Assembly: GCA_963718045.1 (NCBI GenBank)
Contig: OY970350.1
Span: forward strand, 360,001 to 392,000
Origin: Candidatus Saccharimonadota bacterium
GTDB taxonomy: Bacteria > Patescibacteriota > Saccharimonadia > Saccharimonadales > UBA4665
DNA length: 32,000 nt
Direction: 5' to 3'
The stretch's first letter is position 1; the number at the start of each line of letters is the position of its first letter. Of the stretch, positions 13,465 through 22,206 are shown one piece after another. Made by a program: the position numbers and the translations under genes. The notes under the pieces were generated by a model. It had not been told where the DNA came from, made no database searches, and saw only the letters and a program-made list of their open reading frames with translations.

Positions 13465-13686
13465 TTATCCTTTGCGGTAGGTTATCCGACCCTTTGTAAG
13501 ATCATAAGGTGTCAATTCAACCGTCACGCTATCACCGGGTACAATGCGGATAAAATGTTTCCTCATCTTACCGGCAACATGAGCTATAATTTTATGACCG
13601 TTTTCGAGTTCGACTCTAAATTGAGTACCTGGTAAAGTCTCAACTATTGTGCCGTTTAACTCAATAACTTCCTTGTTAGCAGTCAT
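13465..13686 (-). CDS. infA: Translation initiation factor IF-1
   Basis: S1-like fold with [41 protein letters not shown]. Length is 73 aa. Confidence 0.95.
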
Positions 13687-13703
13687 AAATATAACAGGGC
13701 TTC

Positions 13704-13732
13704 ATTATATCAAGCTAAACAGATAGTGTAAA
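13704..13732 (-). promoter_or_regulatory. Near-consensus sigma70-type promoter upstream of infA
   Basis: On the minus strand: TTTACA (13732-13727), exactly 17 nt, TATAAT (13709-13704). Only about 10 nt of leader would precede the infA ATG at 13686, and no SD is visible. Confidence 0.55.
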
Positions 13733-13805
13733 GTGTTGGTTTAAATTACTTTCGGCTGATGGTAATCGTTCTTTAGTTCTAGTCCTTTATAGCTAGCCAT
13801 ATAAA

Positions 13806-14237
13806 CTAAGTTTTTTTATCGAACCCGTAAAGTTTTAAGAAATCGACTGGTTTTAATATATTTATGTGTTTATATGATCCAAGTACGAGTAAATCTTTGT
13901 CGCCACTAATTATGCTTTCTGCGTTACCTGTTACTGCTGTTTCAATAAAAACATTATCAGTTGCATCTCGGCTAGCAGTTATCCGGACTATACCTAATTT
14001 GACGACAAGAGCATCTTCACGAATTGACTCCTCGAGTAATCCTAGGTTTGGTAAAAATAAGGGGAATAATTCCGCTATCTTACGCCGAAGCTCGCTTAGT
14101 AACTCTTCTGAGGTTACAACATTTATTTGTCCATCAATGAATAATCGGATAATCTTTTCTGGATTACCGCCGAAAACTAATCCTGAAATCCATACATTTG
14201 TATCTAAAACAACCTGGGGTCTGGATGTAGTCATCAT
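13806..14237 (-). CDS. PIN-domain toxin (PIN_3 / TIGR00305-like, VapC-type ribonuclease)
   Basis: N-terminal VVLDTNVWISGL (first acidic residue), DATDNVFIETAV and IISGDKDLL motifs. It lies 5 nt downstream of an RHH antitoxin gene. Confidence 0.8.
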   Translation of the reverse strand: MMTTSRPQVVLDTNVWISGLVFGGNPEKIIRLFIDGQINVVTSEELLSELRRKIAELFPLFLPNLGLLEESIREDALVVKLGIVRITASRDATDNVFIETAVTGNAESIISGDKDLLVLGSYKHINILKPVDFLKLYGFDKKT

Positions 14238-14242
14238 ATTAA

Positions 14243-14470
14243 CTAGTTGTTAATGATTTTGTAGACTTGCTCTTCGCTGCTTATACCCATTTGTTTGCCG
14301 ACAGACTTACCTGCAGCAAATAACTGCTCCCATCGCTTTCTACGAGCCAGATCGGAAAGAGCTAGTCTTCTAAAGTACTCACTTCTCGTACCCATATCCT
14401 GCTTGACTTTAGCATCAATGTCCTTGAGCAATCTTTCGTCCAGTGCAATGTTCAATGTTTTTGTAGCCAT
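14243..14470 (-). CDS. Ribbon-helix-helix (CopG/Arc-like) antitoxin
   Basis: 75 aa. The N-terminal beta-strand plus two helices pattern (KTLNIALDERLLKDIDAKVKQDMGTRSEYFRRLALSDL) is typical of RHH. AAGGAG RBS lies 8 nt upstream. Confidence 0.7.
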   Translation of the reverse strand: MATKTLNIALDERLLKDIDAKVKQDMGTRSEYFRRLALSDLARRKRWEQLFAAGKSVGKQMGISSEEQVYKIINN

Positions 14471-14483
14471 TATTTACACTCCT

Positions 14484-14523
14484 TATACAAGTATATTGTA
14501 TAGGTCTTGTATGTGCTAGTCAA
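14484..14523 (-). promoter_or_regulatory. Toxin-antitoxin promoter with overlapping inverted-repeat operator
   Basis: On the minus strand: TTGACT (14523-14518), 17 nt, TACAAT (14500-14495). The inverted repeat TATACAA-GTATA-TTGTATA (14484-14502) covers the -10 and predicted start site. A third TTGTAT half-site lies at 14507-14512. Confidence 0.55.
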
Positions 14524-14646
14524 TGGCATTGTTAAAGTATTTTACTTAAATCAATTCGAAAATCTTTAACCGAGACCAGCCATAGAACCTTAGCCATGCA
14601 ACCTTAAACTATCGGCTAGTGATGCTTGGCGGTATTATATATAGTT

Positions 14647-14961
14647 ATGATTGGCGTTGACTTAGTTTATATTCCTGAGTTTAAAAAACAAATGGAGCTT
14701 GGCGGTAATGCATTCATGCATAAAGTATTTAATTTAGATGAAATAAATAATTCTAAAACCGAGCATTTAGCCGGTTTATGGGCGGCAAAAGAAGCTGTCG
14801 TCAAAGCCTCATTAAAGCCGATTAGCAAATTAACAGATGTTAAAATTAGTTTTAGTAAAAGCGGTCAGCCATCAGCTAGCGCTAAGGGTAATAAGTTTGA
14901 GATATCTATCGCCCATGACGGAGATTATGCTATTGCCGTGGCTTATGGGGTAACCCAGTGA
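14647..14961 (+). CDS. acpS: Holo-[acyl-carrier-protein] synthase (4'-phosphopantetheinyl transferase, AcpS type)
   Basis: MIGVDLVYIPEF, AAKEAVVKA and SIAHDGDYAIAVA are AcpS signatures. I prefer the ATG at 14647 over the track's TTG at 14626. The TGA stop overlaps the GTG start of the next gene (GTGA, 14958-14961). Confidence 0.8.
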   Translation: MIGVDLVYIPEFKKQMELGGNAFMHKVFNLDEINNSKTEHLAGLWAAKEAVVKASLKPISKLTDVKISFSKSGQPSASAKGNKFEISIAHDGDYAIAVAYGVTQ

Positions 14962-17423
14962 ATTATAGAAATTTCAGTGACTATGTGTCTGAGTTTAAAG
15001 GTAGAGGAGAGCGTAGTGCCCTAACTATTCGCAGCTTTATTAAAATAGAAAGACTAAGTTACGCTGCCTTTCAAGTCAATATATATAAGACAGCTAACTT
15101 CTTAAAAGACAGGGGCTATCAGGCTGGTGATCGTTTAATGATAGTTGCCAGCAACTCTCCAGAGTGGCTAGAAGTATTTTTGGCAGCTGAGCTACTGGGA
15201 GTTATCGTCGTGTCGGTAGACATTAGCTTAAGCTCAGCTACAATTAAAGGCTTTATTAAGCAAACTGAACCGAAGGGCATATTCGTCAGTCGGTATAAAG
15301 TTAATGAGTTCAGTAAGTCACTTAACCTATACGTTATCGATGATTTATATCAAGACATTGCCGTTTATTTAGCCGAACCGCCAGGTATTAGTCTTAGCGA
15401 TGAGCAAAAGGGGTTAATTGTTTTCACGTCAGGCACGACGGCTGCTCCTAAAGGTGTAGTTTTGACTCAGGCTAATATCTTAAATAATGTCTTAGGGATT
15501 CAAAGAGCCATTGCCATTGATCCAGACTGGCGGCTTTTATCGGTTCTCCCCTTGTCTCATATGTATGAGTTGACTGGCAGCCTTTCTGTTATATCTAAGG
15601 GGGCTAGTATCTTCTACCTTAAGCAGGTCACTCCCTCGGCTATTGCCAAGGCTTTAGTCGAGTACCGCATATCGGTTATGCTGGCTATCCCGCAGCTTTT
15701 AGGATTGATGATGGGAAGTATTGAGCAAATTGCTAAGAACGAAGGACAGTCCGGGGCGCTTTTGGTTGCCAGACGCATTGCTCGTTACCTGCCCTTTGGA
15801 CTTCGAAGGAAGCTGTTTAGCAGTGTTCGTAAGCGCCTAGGCGGACATTTAAATCTGATTGTCACCGGCGGAGCGCCGATTCCAGAAGACGTTGCCCTTA
15901 AGTGGGAGCTGATGGGTGTTAGGCTGCTCCAGGGCTACGGCTTAACTGAGACTTCGCCGATCTTAACCGTTAACCGGATGGACGACCGTCATGCTGATTC
16001 GCCTGGTCCGCCGCTAGATAATGTTGAGCTTAAAATTGCCGAGGATGGTGAAATATTAGCTAGAGGGCCAAGTATTTTCAGCGAGTACTGGCACAATAAG
16101 ACGGCTACTGAGGAAACATTTACTTCCAATGGCTGGTTTAAAACTGGTGATGCCGGAATGATTAAAAACGGATTACTATATATCCGAGGCCGGCTGAAGT
16201 TTGCCATTGTCCTATCGAGCGGCCTCAAGGTCTTTCCTGAAGACATTGAAGAGCGTGCCGTTCATAATGAGGCTTTCGGCGAGCTCTGCATTGTCGGTGT
16301 TAATACAGCTGGCGGCGAAGAAGTCACTGCTGTCGTAACCTCAGTTAAAAGCGATGACCAGATAGCTAAAGCTATCGAAGAAATTAACGACAAACTGGAG
16401 TCATATCAGTATATTTCTTCCTGGAAAAGGTGGCCAGAAGAGGACTTTCCGCGAACCCGTTTATTAAAAGTTGACCAACGTCTAGTCTGGGATTGGGCTA
16501 ATAAGAAAACGGATGCAGGCCGGTCCGCGAATGAAGAGCCGGCTTCTAAGGACGTCCTAGTTGAGGCCATAAGACTAACCTGTGGCAAACAACTTCCCGA
16601 CGCTCGGGACTCGAATAAGCTAGCTGAGCTTGGACTTGATTCACTAAAGCGCTTAGCTTTAGTAGCAGTACTAGAAGAAACTTTACGGGTCAGTATTCCG
16701 GAGGAATATATATCTTCAGGGACGACTGTTGGCCAGCTTAGAAACTTAATTAAGGAAGCACCAGCCAACAAGGCTAGTAAGCCAATACCTAAATGGCAAT
16801 TTAATCCCTATGTTAGACTTATCGGCAATGCGCTCAGAGATTACCTGCTAGGTAGTATTGTTAGAATATGGGTACGTTTGAAAGTTGAAGGAACCGATAA
16901 CCTTAATAAACTTAACTGCCCGGCTATATATATTTTTAACCACACTGATGACTTTGATGGTCCGGTTGTTTATCGGGCGATACCAAAAAACTTAAGAAAA
17001 CACCTAACTGTAGCTGCCGCTGACGATGTTCTAAGAGAACATAAGGTTTTAGCCTTTATAATTAGACTGTGTTTTGCCGGCTTTAACTTATCTAGAAAAG
17101 AACCGTATTTGCCTAGCCTGGAATACGTTGGAACGGTTATTGATAAAGGCTTTAGCGTCGTAATATCCCCTGAAGGAAAGATTAGCGTTAGCGGTAAACT
17201 TCAGGATTTTAAAAGTGGCATCGGTTTACTGGCTGTCGAATTGGGTGTGCCGATAGTGCCGCTAAAAACATTTGGACTTAGAGGCACCGTCCCGCTGCAT
17301 GCAAATTGGCCTAAAAAACATAGTCATGTAACAGTTAAAATAGGTCGTCCTGTTGTCTTCGGCAGAGATCAGTCCTACAACGAGGTTGCCAGAAAACTGC
17401 ATCAAATCTTAAACAGTATGTAA
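14958..17423 (+). CDS. Tri-domain fusion: AMP-forming fatty acyl ligase + phosphopantetheine carrier domain + PlsC-type lysophospholipid acyltransferase
   Basis: Adenylation motifs VFTSGTTAAPKG (15426-15455 for TSGTTAAPKG), GYGLTETSP, WFKTGDAG and PRTRLLKV. Carrier motif LGLDSLKRL with Ser562 at 16641-16643. Acyltransferase HX4D motif NHTDDFD at 16938-16958 and SPEGK at 17166-17180. Confidence 0.85.
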   Translation: MNYRNFSDYVSEFKGRGERSALTIRSFIKIERLSYAAFQVNIYKTANFLKDRGYQAGDRLMIVASNSPEWLEVFLAAELLGVIVVSVDISLSSATIKGFIKQTEPKGIFVSRYKVNEFSKSLNLYVIDDLYQDIAVYLAEPPGISLSDEQKGLIVFTSGTTAAPKGVVLTQANILNNVLGIQRAIAIDPDWRLLSVLPLSHMYELTGSLSVISKGASIFYLKQVTPSAIAKALVEYRISVMLAIPQLLGLMMGSIEQIAKNEGQSGALLVARRIARYLPFGLRRKLFSSVRKRLGGHLNLIVTGGAPIPEDVALKWELMGVRLLQGYGLTETSPILTVNRMDDRHADSPGPPLDNVELKIAEDGEILARGPSIFSEYWHNKTATEETFTSNGWFKTGDAGMIKNGLLYIRGRLKFAIVLSSGLKVFPEDIEERAVHNEAFGELCIVGVNTAGGEEVTAVVTSVKSDDQIAKAIEEINDKLESYQYISSWKRWPEEDFPRTRLLKVDQRLVWDWANKKTDAGRSANEEPASKDVLVEAIRLTCGKQLPDARDSNKLAELGLDSLKRLALVAVLEETLRVSIPEEYISSGTTVGQLRNLIKEAPANKASKPIPKWQFNPYVRLIGNALRDYLLGSIVRIWVRLKVEGTDNLNKLNCPAIYIFNHTDDFDGPVVYRAIPKNLRKHLTVAAADDVLREHKVLAFIIRLCFAGFNLSRKEPYLPSLEYVGTVIDKGFSVVISPEGKISVSGKLQDFKSGIGLLAVELGVPIVPLKTFGLRGTVPLHANWPKKHSHVTVKIGRPVVFGRDQSYNEVARKLHQILNSM

Positions 17424-17436
17424 GCCAGACTTACCT

Positions 17437-18939
17437 TTAACTACTGTTCCGTTTTCTAATAAATTTCGGTATGAATTTGAGTTCACGAGCGCCGGTAGCT
17501 GCTTCAGCTCCTGTCTCTGGATCATAAAAGAAGTCCGGACTTGAGTATTGGTCATAAGTTACCATTAGAGCCCTTGATTCAACGGCTCTTAGAGTTTGCA
17601 GGGCGACAGATACTAAGATTAGGATGCTAGTACCGCCAATAGTTATGCTGACGCTAACAAATAACTGGGCAATAATTGGTAATAGGGCCAGTAAACCTAA
17701 GGAAATGGCGCCAAACAGAGTCAGCCTGTTAACGATTCTAGATAAGTACTTCTCGGTTTGCAGTCCGCCCCTGACTCCTTCAATAAAGCCGCCCTGTTTG
17801 TGCAGGTTTTCGGCTATTTCTTTAGAGTTAAAAGTGATTGATGTATAAAAGAAAGTAAAGACAAAGACTAGGAGGAAGTATGTCAGCGGATAGATATAAG
17901 CAATTAAACCTTCAGTCTTAAAGGTGGTGGATGTTGGCGTCTGGAACCAAGTAGTAAGGTCGGTGCCAATATGGGACCAAGTCACGCTTTTAACACCCTT
18001 TAATATTTCACCGGCAAAACTAGGCACACTTAAGAAAGCCACAGCAAAGATAATTGGTATAACTCCTGCTGTAATCAGTTTTACGGGCAGCGTGGTCGTC
18101 ACGCCGCCGTAGGCCCGGTTGCCTTGGACCCTTTTGGCATAGTTCACCGTCAGGTTTCTGGCCGCCTCGTTTAACATAACGACCAGCCACGTCAGGATTA
18201 CGATAGACACTATTATAATAGCGGTATAGATTAAAGCCTCCTTATTGAAAGCAATGCTGTGACCAAAGACTTTCCAGTGATGTTTACCAGTTACAACCGA
18301 GCTAATAATGTTATGAATATTGCTTGGCAGCCGGCTAACAATACCGACGGTTATGATTAGCGATATACCGTTGCCAAGGCTTTGTTCAGTCACTAGCTCA
18401 CCGAGCCACATAAGCAGCATCGAACCGCCGGTTAAGGAAGCCACCATTAAGACCCACTGCATTATGGATGTATTAGCGGTAATATTACCAACACCGCCTA
18501 GACTTGCGGCTGCTTGTCTAATTAGGAAGATTGATCCGACAGATTGAATCATAGCCAGCGGAAAGGTCAGGATACGGGTGTACTGGTTAATCTTCTTCTG
18601 GCCAAACTCACCTTCTTTATGGAGTGCTTCAAGTTTAGGGATAGCTTTTGTTAGAAGCTGCATAATAATCGAGGCATTAATAAAAGGTCCCAGGCCGGCC
18701 AGCATTATTGAGAAGTTGGCTAGTGCGCCGCCGGATAAAACGTTAATAAAGCTAAGCAGCTGCGGACTATTCTTGGAATTAAACAAGTTTTGCAGGACTT
18801 GGTGCAGAGTTTGTGGATTAGCTATAGGTACTGGCAGTTGAGCTAGGATTCTAAAAACTAACAATATACCAAGGACAGCTAAGATGCGCTTGCGCATGTC
18901 GCTATGGCTTAGTGAACGCCAGATTACTTTCCAGTTCAT
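17437..18939 (-). CDS. secY: Preprotein translocase subunit SecY (about 45-aa C-terminal extension)
   Basis: A 10-TM SecY profile directly downstream of rplO in the conserved position. 500 aa. Confidence 0.95.
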   Translation of the reverse strand: MNWKVIWRSLSHSDMRKRILAVLGILLVFRILAQLPVPIANPQTLHQVLQNLFNSKNSPQLLSFINVLSGGALANFSIMLAGLGPFINASIIMQLLTKAIPKLEALHKEGEFGQKKINQYTRILTFPLAMIQSVGSIFLIRQAAASLGGVGNITANTSIMQWVLMVASLTGGSMLLMWLGELVTEQSLGNGISLIITVGIVSRLPSNIHNIISSVVTGKHHWKVFGHSIAFNKEALIYTAIIIVSIVILTWLVVMLNEAARNLTVNYAKRVQGNRAYGGVTTTLPVKLITAGVIPIIFAVAFLSVPSFAGEILKGVKSVTWSHIGTDLTTWFQTPTSTTFKTEGLIAYIYPLTYFLLVFVFTFFYTSITFNSKEIAENLHKQGGFIEGVRGGLQTEKYLSRIVNRLTLFGAISLGLLALLPIIAQLFVSVSITIGGTSILILVSVALQTLRAVESRALMVTYDQYSSPDFFYDPETGAEAATGARELKFIPKFIRKRNSS

Positions 18940-18991: not shown

Positions 18992-19465
18992 TTATTTTAT
19001 GCTGTCAGAGTCCTTGGCCGGTCTTTTTAAGCGCTCGACTTTTAGGTAACTGCCCCCGGCTTTATTTATCTCGTCAATAGCTCCGCCGCTGGCATTAGGC
19101 AGCTTGACAGTCTTAGACGACTTAAGCTCGCCGCCAGCCAGCAACTTCACCTTAGTATAGGGGCTAGATATTAAGCCTTCTTCGGCAAGTACGTTTGCAT
19201 CTATTTCCTTAGCCTTAACCGCTTCAAGAGAGCCAACTTTTACTATTTCAGCCTTAGTTTTAAGTGATTTAAAGCCAGGCAGTTTAGGCAGCTGCTGCAT
19301 AAGCGGGTTTTGTCCGCCGCTAAAGCCTGGACGCTTGCTAAAACCGGTTCTCGATTTTTGACCCTTAGTCCCCCGTCCGGCAGTTTTGCCTTGTCCGGCA
19401 GCAATGCCTCGTCCAACCCGATTAGTCTTCTGGCTGGCGGTTAAATTTAGCTGGTTGTACTTCAT
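18992..19465 (-). CDS. rplO: 50S ribosomal protein L15
   Basis: NRVGRGIAAGQGKTAGRGTKGQKSRTG glycine-rich L15 N-terminus. Its start overlaps the rpsE stop (ATGA). Confidence 0.95.
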   Translation of the reverse strand: MKYNQLNLTASQKTNRVGRGIAAGQGKTAGRGTKGQKSRTGFSKRPGFSGGQNPLMQQLPKLPGFKSLKTKAEIVKVGSLEAVKAKEIDANVLAEEGLISSPYTKVKLLAGGELKSSKTVKLPNASGGAIDEINKAGGSYLKVERLKRPAKDSDSIK

Positions 19466-20031
19466 TTAGCTTCCTTTGACTTGGCGGTAACTTTTTTGGT
19501 AACTTTAGGTTTTGAGTCCGGTTTCCCTTGTCTGGTTATCCATTCACTCGCCGGCTTAAGTGAGCTTAATGCATTAATTGTGGCATAAGCTACGTTAGTC
19601 TTGTTGGATGAGCCGAGGGACTTAGTCAGTGCATTATTAACACCGGCAGCTTCAAGAACTGTTCTAATAACGCCGCCGGCAATAACACCCGTACCTGGGC
19701 TGGCTGGTTTTAGTAAGATTCTGGCACCAGATACTTTTGCTTCAACTTCGTGAGGAATTGTACCTTTATATAAATTAACGGTGATGAAGTGTTTTTTTGC
19801 AACTTCAGTGGCTTTAGTAACAGCTGCGGTTACATCGGCACCCTTAGCAGTCCCGACGCCAACACGGTTTTTTCGGTCGCCAACGACTACTAGAGCCCTA
19901 AATCTAAATCTTCGGCCGCCTTTAACAACTCGGGCGACACGGTCAACCTGGACAGTCCGTTCATCGAACTGCTTTTCTTCGGGCTCTACTCGAGGCCTTT
20001 TACGATTCTTATTTGCTTGTTCGTTAGCCAT
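19462..20031 (-). CDS. rpsE: 30S ribosomal protein S5 (extended termini)
   Basis: VDRVARVVKGGRRFRFRALVVVGD is the S5 dsRBD signature. Confidence 0.95.
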   Translation of the reverse strand: MANEQANKNRKRPRVEPEEKQFDERTVQVDRVARVVKGGRRFRFRALVVVGDRKNRVGVGTAKGADVTAAVTKATEVAKKHFITVNLYKGTIPHEVEAKVSGARILLKPASPGTGVIAGGVIRTVLEAAGVNNALTKSLGSSNKTNVAYATINALSSLKPASEWITRQGKPDSKPKVTKKVTAKSKEAK

Positions 20032-21627: not shown

Positions 21628-22206
21628 TTAGCTCCTTTCTTTCTCAAAGGGTATGCCGAATTTATCCAGCAGTGCCTTTGATTGTTCTCTAGATTTAGAT
21701 TTAATTACCAGGATTATTTCCAATCCGTGGCTGGTTGTCGTTTCTTCAAATGTTAACTCCGGAAAAACAGACTGTTCACTTATGCCGATTGTATAGTTGC
21801 CCTGGGCGTCAAAAGAGGTAGTCTTTAGGCCATGGAAGTCCCGCAGCCTGGGCAGTACCAGGTTAATAAAACGATCTAGAAATTCATACATACGGTCGCC
21901 TCTAAGTGTTACTTTAAGCCCAATCTTGTTGCCTTCCCTAAGCTTAAATGAGGCAATAGACTTCTTAGCGGTTGTTTCAACTGGCGATTGTCCGGTTATC
22001 TTACGAAGAGTATTGGCAGCTGCTTCCAGGTATTTTTTATCGTCCTTAGCCTTACCGAGACCAACATTAATAACGATCTTAGTCAGCCTTGGTGCCTGCC
22101 AAGGGTTTTTAAGACCCAGTTCACTAACAAGTTCAGGCAATAATGTTTGCCTGTACTCGGCTTTAAGCCGCGGCGTATAAGCTACTTTTAAGTCGTTAGC
22201 AGCCAT
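21628..22206 (-). CDS. rplE: 50S ribosomal protein L5
   Basis: [13 protein letters not shown] and the [19 protein letters not shown] motifs. Confidence 0.95.

Follow-up and report, generated by a model that had tools for sequence, protein, structure and literature searches.

How do bacteria that lack fatty-acid synthesis furnish the acyl chains of their membranes? The question arises for Saccharibacteria, in which this pathway is missing (PMC10633639, PMC6031116). One analysed Saccharibacteria genome has the CdsA, PgsA, Cls and phosphatidylinositol synthase (PI-synthase) steps, which would be functional "if provided" phosphatidate (PMC6031116). No mechanism of lipid acquisition or uptake has been identified in Patescibacteria (PMC11665869). 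A combined lipidomic and metagenomic study of an aquifer reported genomes of the Candidate Phyla Radiation (CPR) without enzymes that produce or require acyl carrier protein (ACP), found lysolipids to be enriched in the CPR-dominated small-cell fraction, and proposed that lysolipids are scavenged (PMC7242380). Here we analyse a pair of genes that bears on this question. The pair lies in a 32,000-nucleotide stretch of a Candidatus Saccharimonadota genome (contig OY970350.1, positions 360,001 to 392,000), which we call the window. The first gene, acpS, encodes an AcpS-type 4'-phosphopantetheinyl transferase (PPTase), and the second encodes a fusion of a ligase, a carrier and an acyltransferase; together they are referred to as the cassette. 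A preliminary description of the window had taken the genome to be that of a host-dependent organism, in agreement with its SecY, whose homologues of 77-97% identity are named Candidatus Saccharibacteria or Saccharimonadales by their sources, and with the missing pathway in that group.

With some reservation, we take the pair to form, probably, a unit that by itself channels free fatty acids into glycerolipids via its built-in carrier. AcpS would move the phosphopantetheine arm from CoA to Ser562 of the carrier. The N-terminal ANL domain would then adenylate a free long-chain fatty acid, presumably derived from the host, and thioesterify it to the arm. The carrier would hand the chain over to the PlsC-fold domain at the C terminus, where the His662/Asp667 dyad would pass it to the hydroxyl of a glycerolipid at the membrane surface, the most likely acceptor being a lysophospholipid or lysophosphatidate. 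The chemistry of priming, of adenylation and loading, and of HX4D transfer follows from known domain families. The unit had been proposed to work without any free ACP or CoA pool, and the CoA-free part of that proposal is too strong: CoA is the phosphopantetheine donor of AcpS, and is needed once per enzyme molecule for priming. Our reading is based on domain anatomy, conservation of catalytic residues, fold, the coupling to AcpS, and the synteny of relatives with lipid genes. The cell's reliance on this route is inferred, as are the acceptor and the use of fatty acid as substrate.

The fusion protein and its coupled PPTase

The fusion gene (14958..17423, plus strand) encodes a protein of 821 aa, supported by its Pfam domains, an alignment of homologues and an AlphaFold2 model of the full-length chain (mean predicted local distance difference test score, pLDDT, 83.6; predicted template modelling score, pTM, 0.80). 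The ANL-superfamily acyl-adenylate-forming domain occupies residues ~29-510 (15042..16487; Pfam AMP-binding at residues 29-378, 2.7e-60) and carries the motif TSGTTAAPKG (15426-15455), the motifs GYGLTE and TGD, and Lys504 (16467-16469). It is nearest to long-chain fatty-acid ligases, with FadD13 and MatB as the best matches in the PDB. The carrier (ACP-like) domain follows at residues 533-596 (16554..16745), with Ser562 encoded at 16641-16643. Its Pfam PP-binding match (9e-6; 26.3 bits) exceeds the gathering score of 20.8, and its PDB and NCBIfam matches are acyl carrier proteins of the fatty-acid-synthase type. A linker with a long amphipathic helix, residues ~613-638 (16794..16871; helix 617-638 in the model, hydrophobic moment 0.52 over residues 613-630), leads into the acyltransferase core. 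The helix is a possible membrane-interface element, by its likeness to the N-terminal helices of Thermotoga maritima PlsC; no segment of transmembrane grade was found along the whole fusion protein. The C-terminal domain, residues 640-821 (16875..17420), has the PlsC/GPAT acyltransferase fold (Pfam Acyltransferase PF01553 at residues 640-769, 3.5e-15), with the HX4D box NHTDDFD (His662 and Asp667; 16938-16958) and SPEGK of motif III (17166-17180).

The residues expected to act in each step are conserved. An alignment of 41 homologues, 49-57% identical to the window protein, shows as invariant TSGTT-A-PKG (157-166), GYGL-E (326-331), TGD (396-398) and K504 in the ANL domain, D561-S562-L563 in the carrier, and H662, D667 and P738-E739-G740 in the acyltransferase. 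The Pfam scan and the sequence thus bear out the open reading frames, the three-domain fusion, the overlap of the two genes and the motifs at their codons, all of which had been described before.

The acpS gene (14647..14961, plus strand; Pfam ACPS 5e-13) immediately precedes the fusion gene. From the ATG that is also the called start in a 99%-identical public contig (L001), it encodes 104 aa; with a TTG at 14626 as the alternative start, the product would have 111 aa, and the stop is TGA at 14959-14961 either way. Its earlier assignment to the AcpS type stands, while its length of 105 aa is corrected to one of these values. The protein passes PF01648 (49.5 bits vs 25) and TIGR00556 (65 bits vs a cut-off of 45.35), stays below the equivalog-level AcpS models (63.5 vs 124), and contains both G-V-D5, with the Mg-binding aspartate, and WAAKEAVVKA, which holds the KEA-x-x-K motif. 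On these scores it is a short, divergent member of the AcpS type.

The stop codon of acpS overlaps the GTG start of the fusion gene (14958) in a GTGA (14958..14961), an arrangement read as translational coupling. Stop/start overlaps of this kind occur at five junctions in all: GTGA in the window, ATGA at loci L003, L004 and L011, and TGATG at L006. At L011 the order of the two genes is inverted, and at L094 acpS abuts the fusion gene. The preliminary description had seen here a dedicated, translationally coupled AcpS that serves a built-in carrier, and the recurrence of the coupling in independent loci upholds it. More than 120 full-length homologues, 49-57% identical, have the same three Pfam domains; together with the recurrent stop/start overlaps, this places the arrangement far beyond chance.

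The coupling also marks off a clade. At a fusion-protein identity of at least 34%, the window clade comprises nine distinct loci (the window with L001, L003, L004, L006, L011, L012, L094, L095 and L096). All nine have acpS, directly adjacent to the fusion gene in eight and 1.7 kb away in one. A search with the AcpS profile found acpS in none of 32 distant three-domain metagenomic loci (24-31% identity). The coupled acpS is a distinctive feature, specific to the window clade. From locus to locus, the identity of AcpS rises and falls with that of the fusion (53 vs 55, 55 vs 51 and 30 vs 37, for instance), and the two genes have therefore been inherited as a unit.

These observations bear on whether the carrier functions at all. 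The ANL domain could make acyl-CoA, and the acyltransferase could use acyl-CoA or free acyl-ACP, with the carrier as a vestige between them. The ANL domain resembles CoA ligases most, databases give homologues the name "long-chain acyl-CoA synthetase", and a PP-binding score of 26 bits is modest. A vestigial carrier is nevertheless very unlikely, given that D561-S562-L563 is unchanged in all 41 aligned sequences, and that every clade locus has kept a coupled PPTase gene that diverges along with the fusion, which would be senseless if the carrier were dead. AlphaFold2 also predicts that the carrier region forms a folded helical bundle.

Relation to known systems

Carrier loading by a ligase on the same chain has precedents. 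In the adenylation-carrier didomains of nonribosomal peptide synthetases (NRPS) and carboxylic acid reductases (CAR), the ANL domain loads a carrier on its own chain, as proposed here, and EntE-EntB (3rg2) and CAR (5mss) are among the structural matches with the greatest coverage of the fusion model (TMq 0.49-0.56). A Foldseek search of the full-length model against the PDB returned ANL and adenylation-carrier structures only, with no solved structure of the three-domain architecture. Downstream, the systems differ: the didomains are followed by condensation or reductase domains, whereas here a glycerolipid-type acyltransferase follows, and the PPTase is AcpS-type rather than Sfp-type. An NRPS-like module for a secondary metabolite was considered and rejected on these grounds. 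Pfam gives AMP-binding, PP-binding and PF01553 only, and no condensation, ketosynthase or thioesterase domain and no Sfp-type PPTase was found.

The closest counterpart by domain order is ElbD of Myxococcus xanthus, a protein of ether-lipid biosynthesis composed of fatty-acyl reductase (FAR), acyl-CoA synthetase (ACS), ACP and AGPAT domains (PMC9131029). The ligase and carrier activities of ElbD, including loading of the carrier by the ligase domain, were confirmed in vitro (PMC9131029). The likeness of the window protein to ElbD is drawn via L034, a metagenomic ElbD/ElbE-like locus. Its protein of 1509 aa begins with NAD_binding_4 and Sterile domains (fatty-acyl reductase), continues with AMP-binding, PP-binding and Acyltransferase, and is followed by an epimerase gene. 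Residues 602-1432 of the L034 protein can be aligned with the window protein, domain for domain in the same order (28% identity, E = 2e-74); ACS, ACP and AGPAT thus succeed each other on one chain as in ElbD. The window protein lacks the N-terminal reductase, its ANL domain beginning at residue 29 or earlier; unlike ElbD, it has its own coupled acpS and divergent acyltransferase motifs I and III. The genes around the two also differ. ElbD sits with elbB (HAD) and elbE (epimerase), whereas the neighbours in the window are acpS, a PIN/antitoxin pair and secY.

The reversed order of domains and the built-in carrier, presented earlier as new, are indeed present, but the novelty is not: the layout is that of ElbD minus the reductase. 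Among clusters at 50% identity, each searched through one representative, ~150 further ones share it. Most of the representatives are 800-880 aa long and align end to end (residues ~1-820) at 31-43% identity, within a listed range of 31-57%; a few are fragments. The named members belong to Chloroflexota and are annotated just as "AMP-binding protein" or "long-chain acyl-CoA synthetase". A scan of contigs with the single fusion protein as query gave just a weak Xenorhabdus PlsC-like match. ElbD-like homologues without the FAR1 domain were noted by Lorenzen et al. (2014), and a later review places such proteins in other phyla and describes them as unstudied (PMC9131029). The order ligase, carrier, acyltransferase, though uncharacterised, was thus already known. 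No description of an enzyme of this kind from Saccharibacteria was found in the literature.

Does the kinship with ElbD extend to function? The product could be a lipid of a special kind, for instance acyl-dihydroxyacetone phosphate or another ether-lipid precursor, rather than a diacyl phospholipid. The end-to-end alignment with the L034 protein speaks for this, as does the description of the ElbD acyltransferase domain as AGPAT/GNPAT-like (PMC9131029). We consider such a role quite unlikely. The window protein has no FAR/NAD_binding_4 domain, and no elbB-, elbE- or AGPS-like gene (epimerase, HAD) was found near the cassette at any of the nine clade loci. The informative neighbours are instead those of phospholipid metabolism discussed below: cdsA, a CDP-alcohol phosphatidyltransferase gene and a PF03706 gene. 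Some reductase-less homologues, moreover, occur in bacteria without reported ether lipids (PMC9131029).

Entry of fatty acids into glycerolipids, which we prefer, has a counterpart in E. coli Aas (2-acyl-GPE acyltransferase / acyl-ACP synthetase). Aas performs the chemistry that we propose for the cassette: a fatty acid and ATP give an acyl-carrier thioester, from which Aas passes the chain to a lysophospholipid. BLASTP relates both parts of Aas to the window protein, the ANL domain at 26% identity (E = 5e-20) and the region of acyltransferase motif III at 30% identity (E = 6e-7). The order of the domains is swapped. In Aas the acyltransferase is N-terminal and the ANL domain C-terminal; Aas uses free AcpP, whereas the window protein has a built-in carrier. 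LplT-Aas fusions exist, and there is no lplT beside the window cassette. The NCBIfam Aas models (NF005959, NF006386 and NF005291) are not passed: the full protein scores 139 and 127 bits and the C-terminal part 45, 44 and 22.7, against cut-offs of 886-1349.

The acyltransferase domain and its acceptor

Modelled by itself, the acyltransferase domain has a pLDDT of 88.1. Its best Foldseek match is T. maritima PlsC, a lysophosphatidic acid (LPA) acyltransferase (PDB 5kym, E = 3.6e-10, TM 0.63-0.65), and squash GPAT, PatA, human GPAT1 and LpxM come next. The domain has in common with PlsC the fold, the HX4D dyad, the arginine of motif II (R713) and motif IV. PlsC, however, works as a separate protein on acyl-ACP or acyl-CoA supplied in trans, and the canonical EGTR of motif III is missing from the window domain. 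Among the family models, those for acyl-ACP-phospholipid acyltransferases of the Aas type score best (45 and 44 bits). AGPAT trails at 34.6 bits, and its model TIGR00530, with a cut-off of 102.95, is not passed.

The window domain diverges in motifs I and III. Motif III of the window reads S-P-E-G-K-I-S (17166-17186) against the canonical F-P-E-G-T-R-S. In the window clade (P0001-P0120) the consensus is PEG[R/K/H/A/S][L/I/V]S for motif III and NH(T/S)DDFD for motif I. The canonical form of both motifs is kept by the fusion proteins of L011 and L012 and by many distant relatives, with P0267, P0269, P0270 and P0273 as outgroups. Mutational work on GPAT motifs indicates that the arginine of motif III contributes to binding of the acceptor phosphate. 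The loss of this residue points tentatively to a lysophospholipid with a head group as acceptor, rather than to LPA or glycerol 3-phosphate (G3P); we treat this as a lead, not a test. E. coli Aas has PEGRIT at this position, the same non-canonical type as PEGKIS of the window. With a motif III that is Aas-like and not PlsC-like, the identity of the acceptor is uncertain.

Gene neighbourhoods of relatives provide a further clue. At L011 and L012 the fusion gene lies beside cdsA (PF01148, 4.7e-44 and 7.2e-37) and a CDP-alcohol phosphatidyltransferase gene. At L004 (8484-9482) and L094 (8479-9492), a gene for a PF03706 LPG_synthase_TM (MprF-flippase-like) membrane protein begins 10-15 bp after the fusion gene. 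These two loci belong to different subclades, both Saccharimonadales-type, and share the three-gene array acpS-fusion-PF03706. In the 32 distant loci no cdsA was found; the neighbours there are heterogeneous (SecA, Xer-type recombinases) and give no functional clue. We propose a role in membrane lipids because the ANL domain is FadD13-like, the acyltransferase is PlsC-like in fold, and relatives have cdsA, CDP-alcohol phosphatidyltransferase and PF03706 genes as neighbours. The membrane-lipid acylation suggested in the preliminary description is thus plausible, fitting both this synteny and the PlsC fold.

The acyl chain might instead go to an acceptor other than a phospholipid: a glycolipid or a lipoglycan, the amino-acid lipid of an OlsA-like step, a lipid for storage, or an acylated product that is secreted. 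Such an acceptor would be in keeping with the divergent motifs I and III of the clade (NH-T/S-DDFD, PEGxΦS), with the failure to reach the TIGR00530 cut-off, with the variation in gene neighbourhoods among loci, and with the presence of phosphatidylinositol mannoside enzymes in Saccharibacteria (PMC6031116). We judge it unlikely all the same. No partner genes of these pathways, such as olsB or glycosyltransferases, recur beside the cassette; PlsC is the best structural match, with PatA and LpxM weaker; and the acyltransferase of Aas, which acts on lysophospholipids, has the same type of motif III.

Several points weigh against the entry of fatty acids into phospholipids as we propose it. The window clade has lost the canonical motif III, and something other than LPA or G3P may therefore be the acceptor. 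The synteny with cdsA comes from relatives with the canonical motif III and may not hold for the motif-divergent window clade, and in the window itself there are no lipid genes close by other than the cassette. The acyltransferase activity of ElbD was not detected in vitro (PMC9131029), and no biochemically characterised member of the reductase-less family was found in the literature. For Southlakia epibionticum, an oral Saccharibacterium, the published table of annotations, in a copy that is possibly incomplete, lists none of PF00501, PF01553, PF01648 and PF01148; the absence of the first three means that the module is not universal in the group. Actinomycetota that presumably have FASII, the type II pathway for making fatty acids, of their own also carry the cassette, so that it has no tie to the loss of FASII.

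Genomic site, distribution and meaning

On the plus strand, the cassette sits between two genes of the minus strand, secY (17437..18939), which converges on the fusion gene, and infA (13465..13686), which forms the other edge of the gap. Both are outside the module. Besides the cassette, the gap (13687-17436) holds a toxin-antitoxin pair on the minus strand, also outside the module: a PIN_3 (VapC-like) toxin gene (13806-14237; Pfam PIN_3 1.3e-17) and, upstream of it, a gene for a 75-aa antitoxin (14243-14470) whose weak HicB-like match (4.6e-4) falls short of the gathering score. Positions 14523-14495 match a sigma-70-like promoter. At the other end, the stop codons of the fusion gene and secY converge at a distance of 13 bp (17421-17439), and no terminator-like hairpin turned up in a scan of these 13 bp and their vicinity. 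In the scan for promoters and terminators as a whole, the counts were no different from those in shuffled sequence.

The content of the secY-infA gap varies among related Saccharimonadales. It is empty in L010 (8489-8724), holds one gene of unknown function (170 aa) in L008 (8510-9183), and holds five unrelated genes in L009 (8480-11278). The gap is a variable-cargo site in this lineage, and looks like a hot spot of integration or rearrangement within the ribosomal-protein gene cluster. The preliminary description had supposed that an insertion displaced adk and map from this place; this does not hold, as neither gene was found between secY and infA in any of the same three relatives. It had also thought that the module looked like an acquired insertion. 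The position of the cassette at secY-infA is lineage-specific, whereas a recent foreign import does not agree with the tree discussed below. Only short repeats at chance level, and no flanking repeats or mobile-element signatures, were found at ~13.7-17.4 kb, and there is no anomaly of composition, the GC content being 0.44-0.46 across 15-17 kb, similar to the surroundings.

Two side observations concern the adjoining ribosomal-protein genes. Ribosomal protein L5 is encoded by one intact open reading frame of 192 aa in the window (21628-22206) and by two (87 and 76 aa) in L001 (16671-17250), where the split is probably an indel error of that assembly. The S5 gene is followed directly by that of L15, with an overlap of 4 nt and no L30 gene between them (18992-20031); there are reports that L30 was lost in CPR bacteria.

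Several cassette homologues are labelled Acidimicrobiales or Actinomycetota by their sources. L003 and L006 have a GC content of 62-63% and neighbouring genes of the free-living type; at L003 an aldehyde dehydrogenase gene lies next to the cassette, and its best named matches are in Actinomycetota. In a neighbour-joining tree of P0001-P0120, rooted on outgroups of 34-40% identity and read with no support values and sparse taxon labels, the low-GC sequences, which include the window protein and all labelled Saccharimonadales, form a basal grade (50-57% identity). The high-GC actinobacterial copies form a single clade nested within this Saccharimonadales-type grade. The topology suggests transfer of the cassette from Saccharimonadales, which are epibionts, to their host phylum, Actinomycetota, and the family looks old within Saccharimonadales rather than recently imported. 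One of the loci stands out by its size. L004 (ENA ERZ25039522, contig_23123) is a contig of 1,901,429 bp with a GC content of 44.6% and several transposase genes near the cassette, and presumably also bears a Saccharimonadales-type SecY (P0210, 77% identical to the window SecY). Saccharibacteria genomes are usually ~1 Mb or less; at 1.9 Mb, L004 would be unusually large for the group, and represents either a large-genome lineage or a chimeric assembly.

A more far-reaching version of our proposal is possible but doubtful. In it, the cassette would be the sole entry of acyl chains into the cell's own membrane in environmental Saccharimonadales, would re-acylate host lysolipids on an enzyme-bound arm that replaces free pools of ACP and acyl-CoA, and would have been passed between epibionts and their Actinomycetota hosts.

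What the analysis adds is an AcpS-coupled sub-family of reductase-less, ElbD-like and Aas-like proteins that is common to Saccharimonadales and Actinomycetota. Its value is limited in that the architecture had been noted before, the acceptor is uncertain, and at least one oral Saccharibacterium apparently lacks the module. The sharing of the cassette between the two groups bears on gene flow between epibionts and hosts. In a Saccharimonadales cell unable to make fatty acids, the cassette would be a route for acyl chains into the cell's own phospholipids, possibly the main one. The supply and assembly of membrane lipids in Patescibacteria is an acknowledged gap. The cassette places in a CPR genome an ACP-dependent enzyme for acyl activation and transfer together with its own PPTase, and thus offers a cloneable candidate for the missing acylation step.

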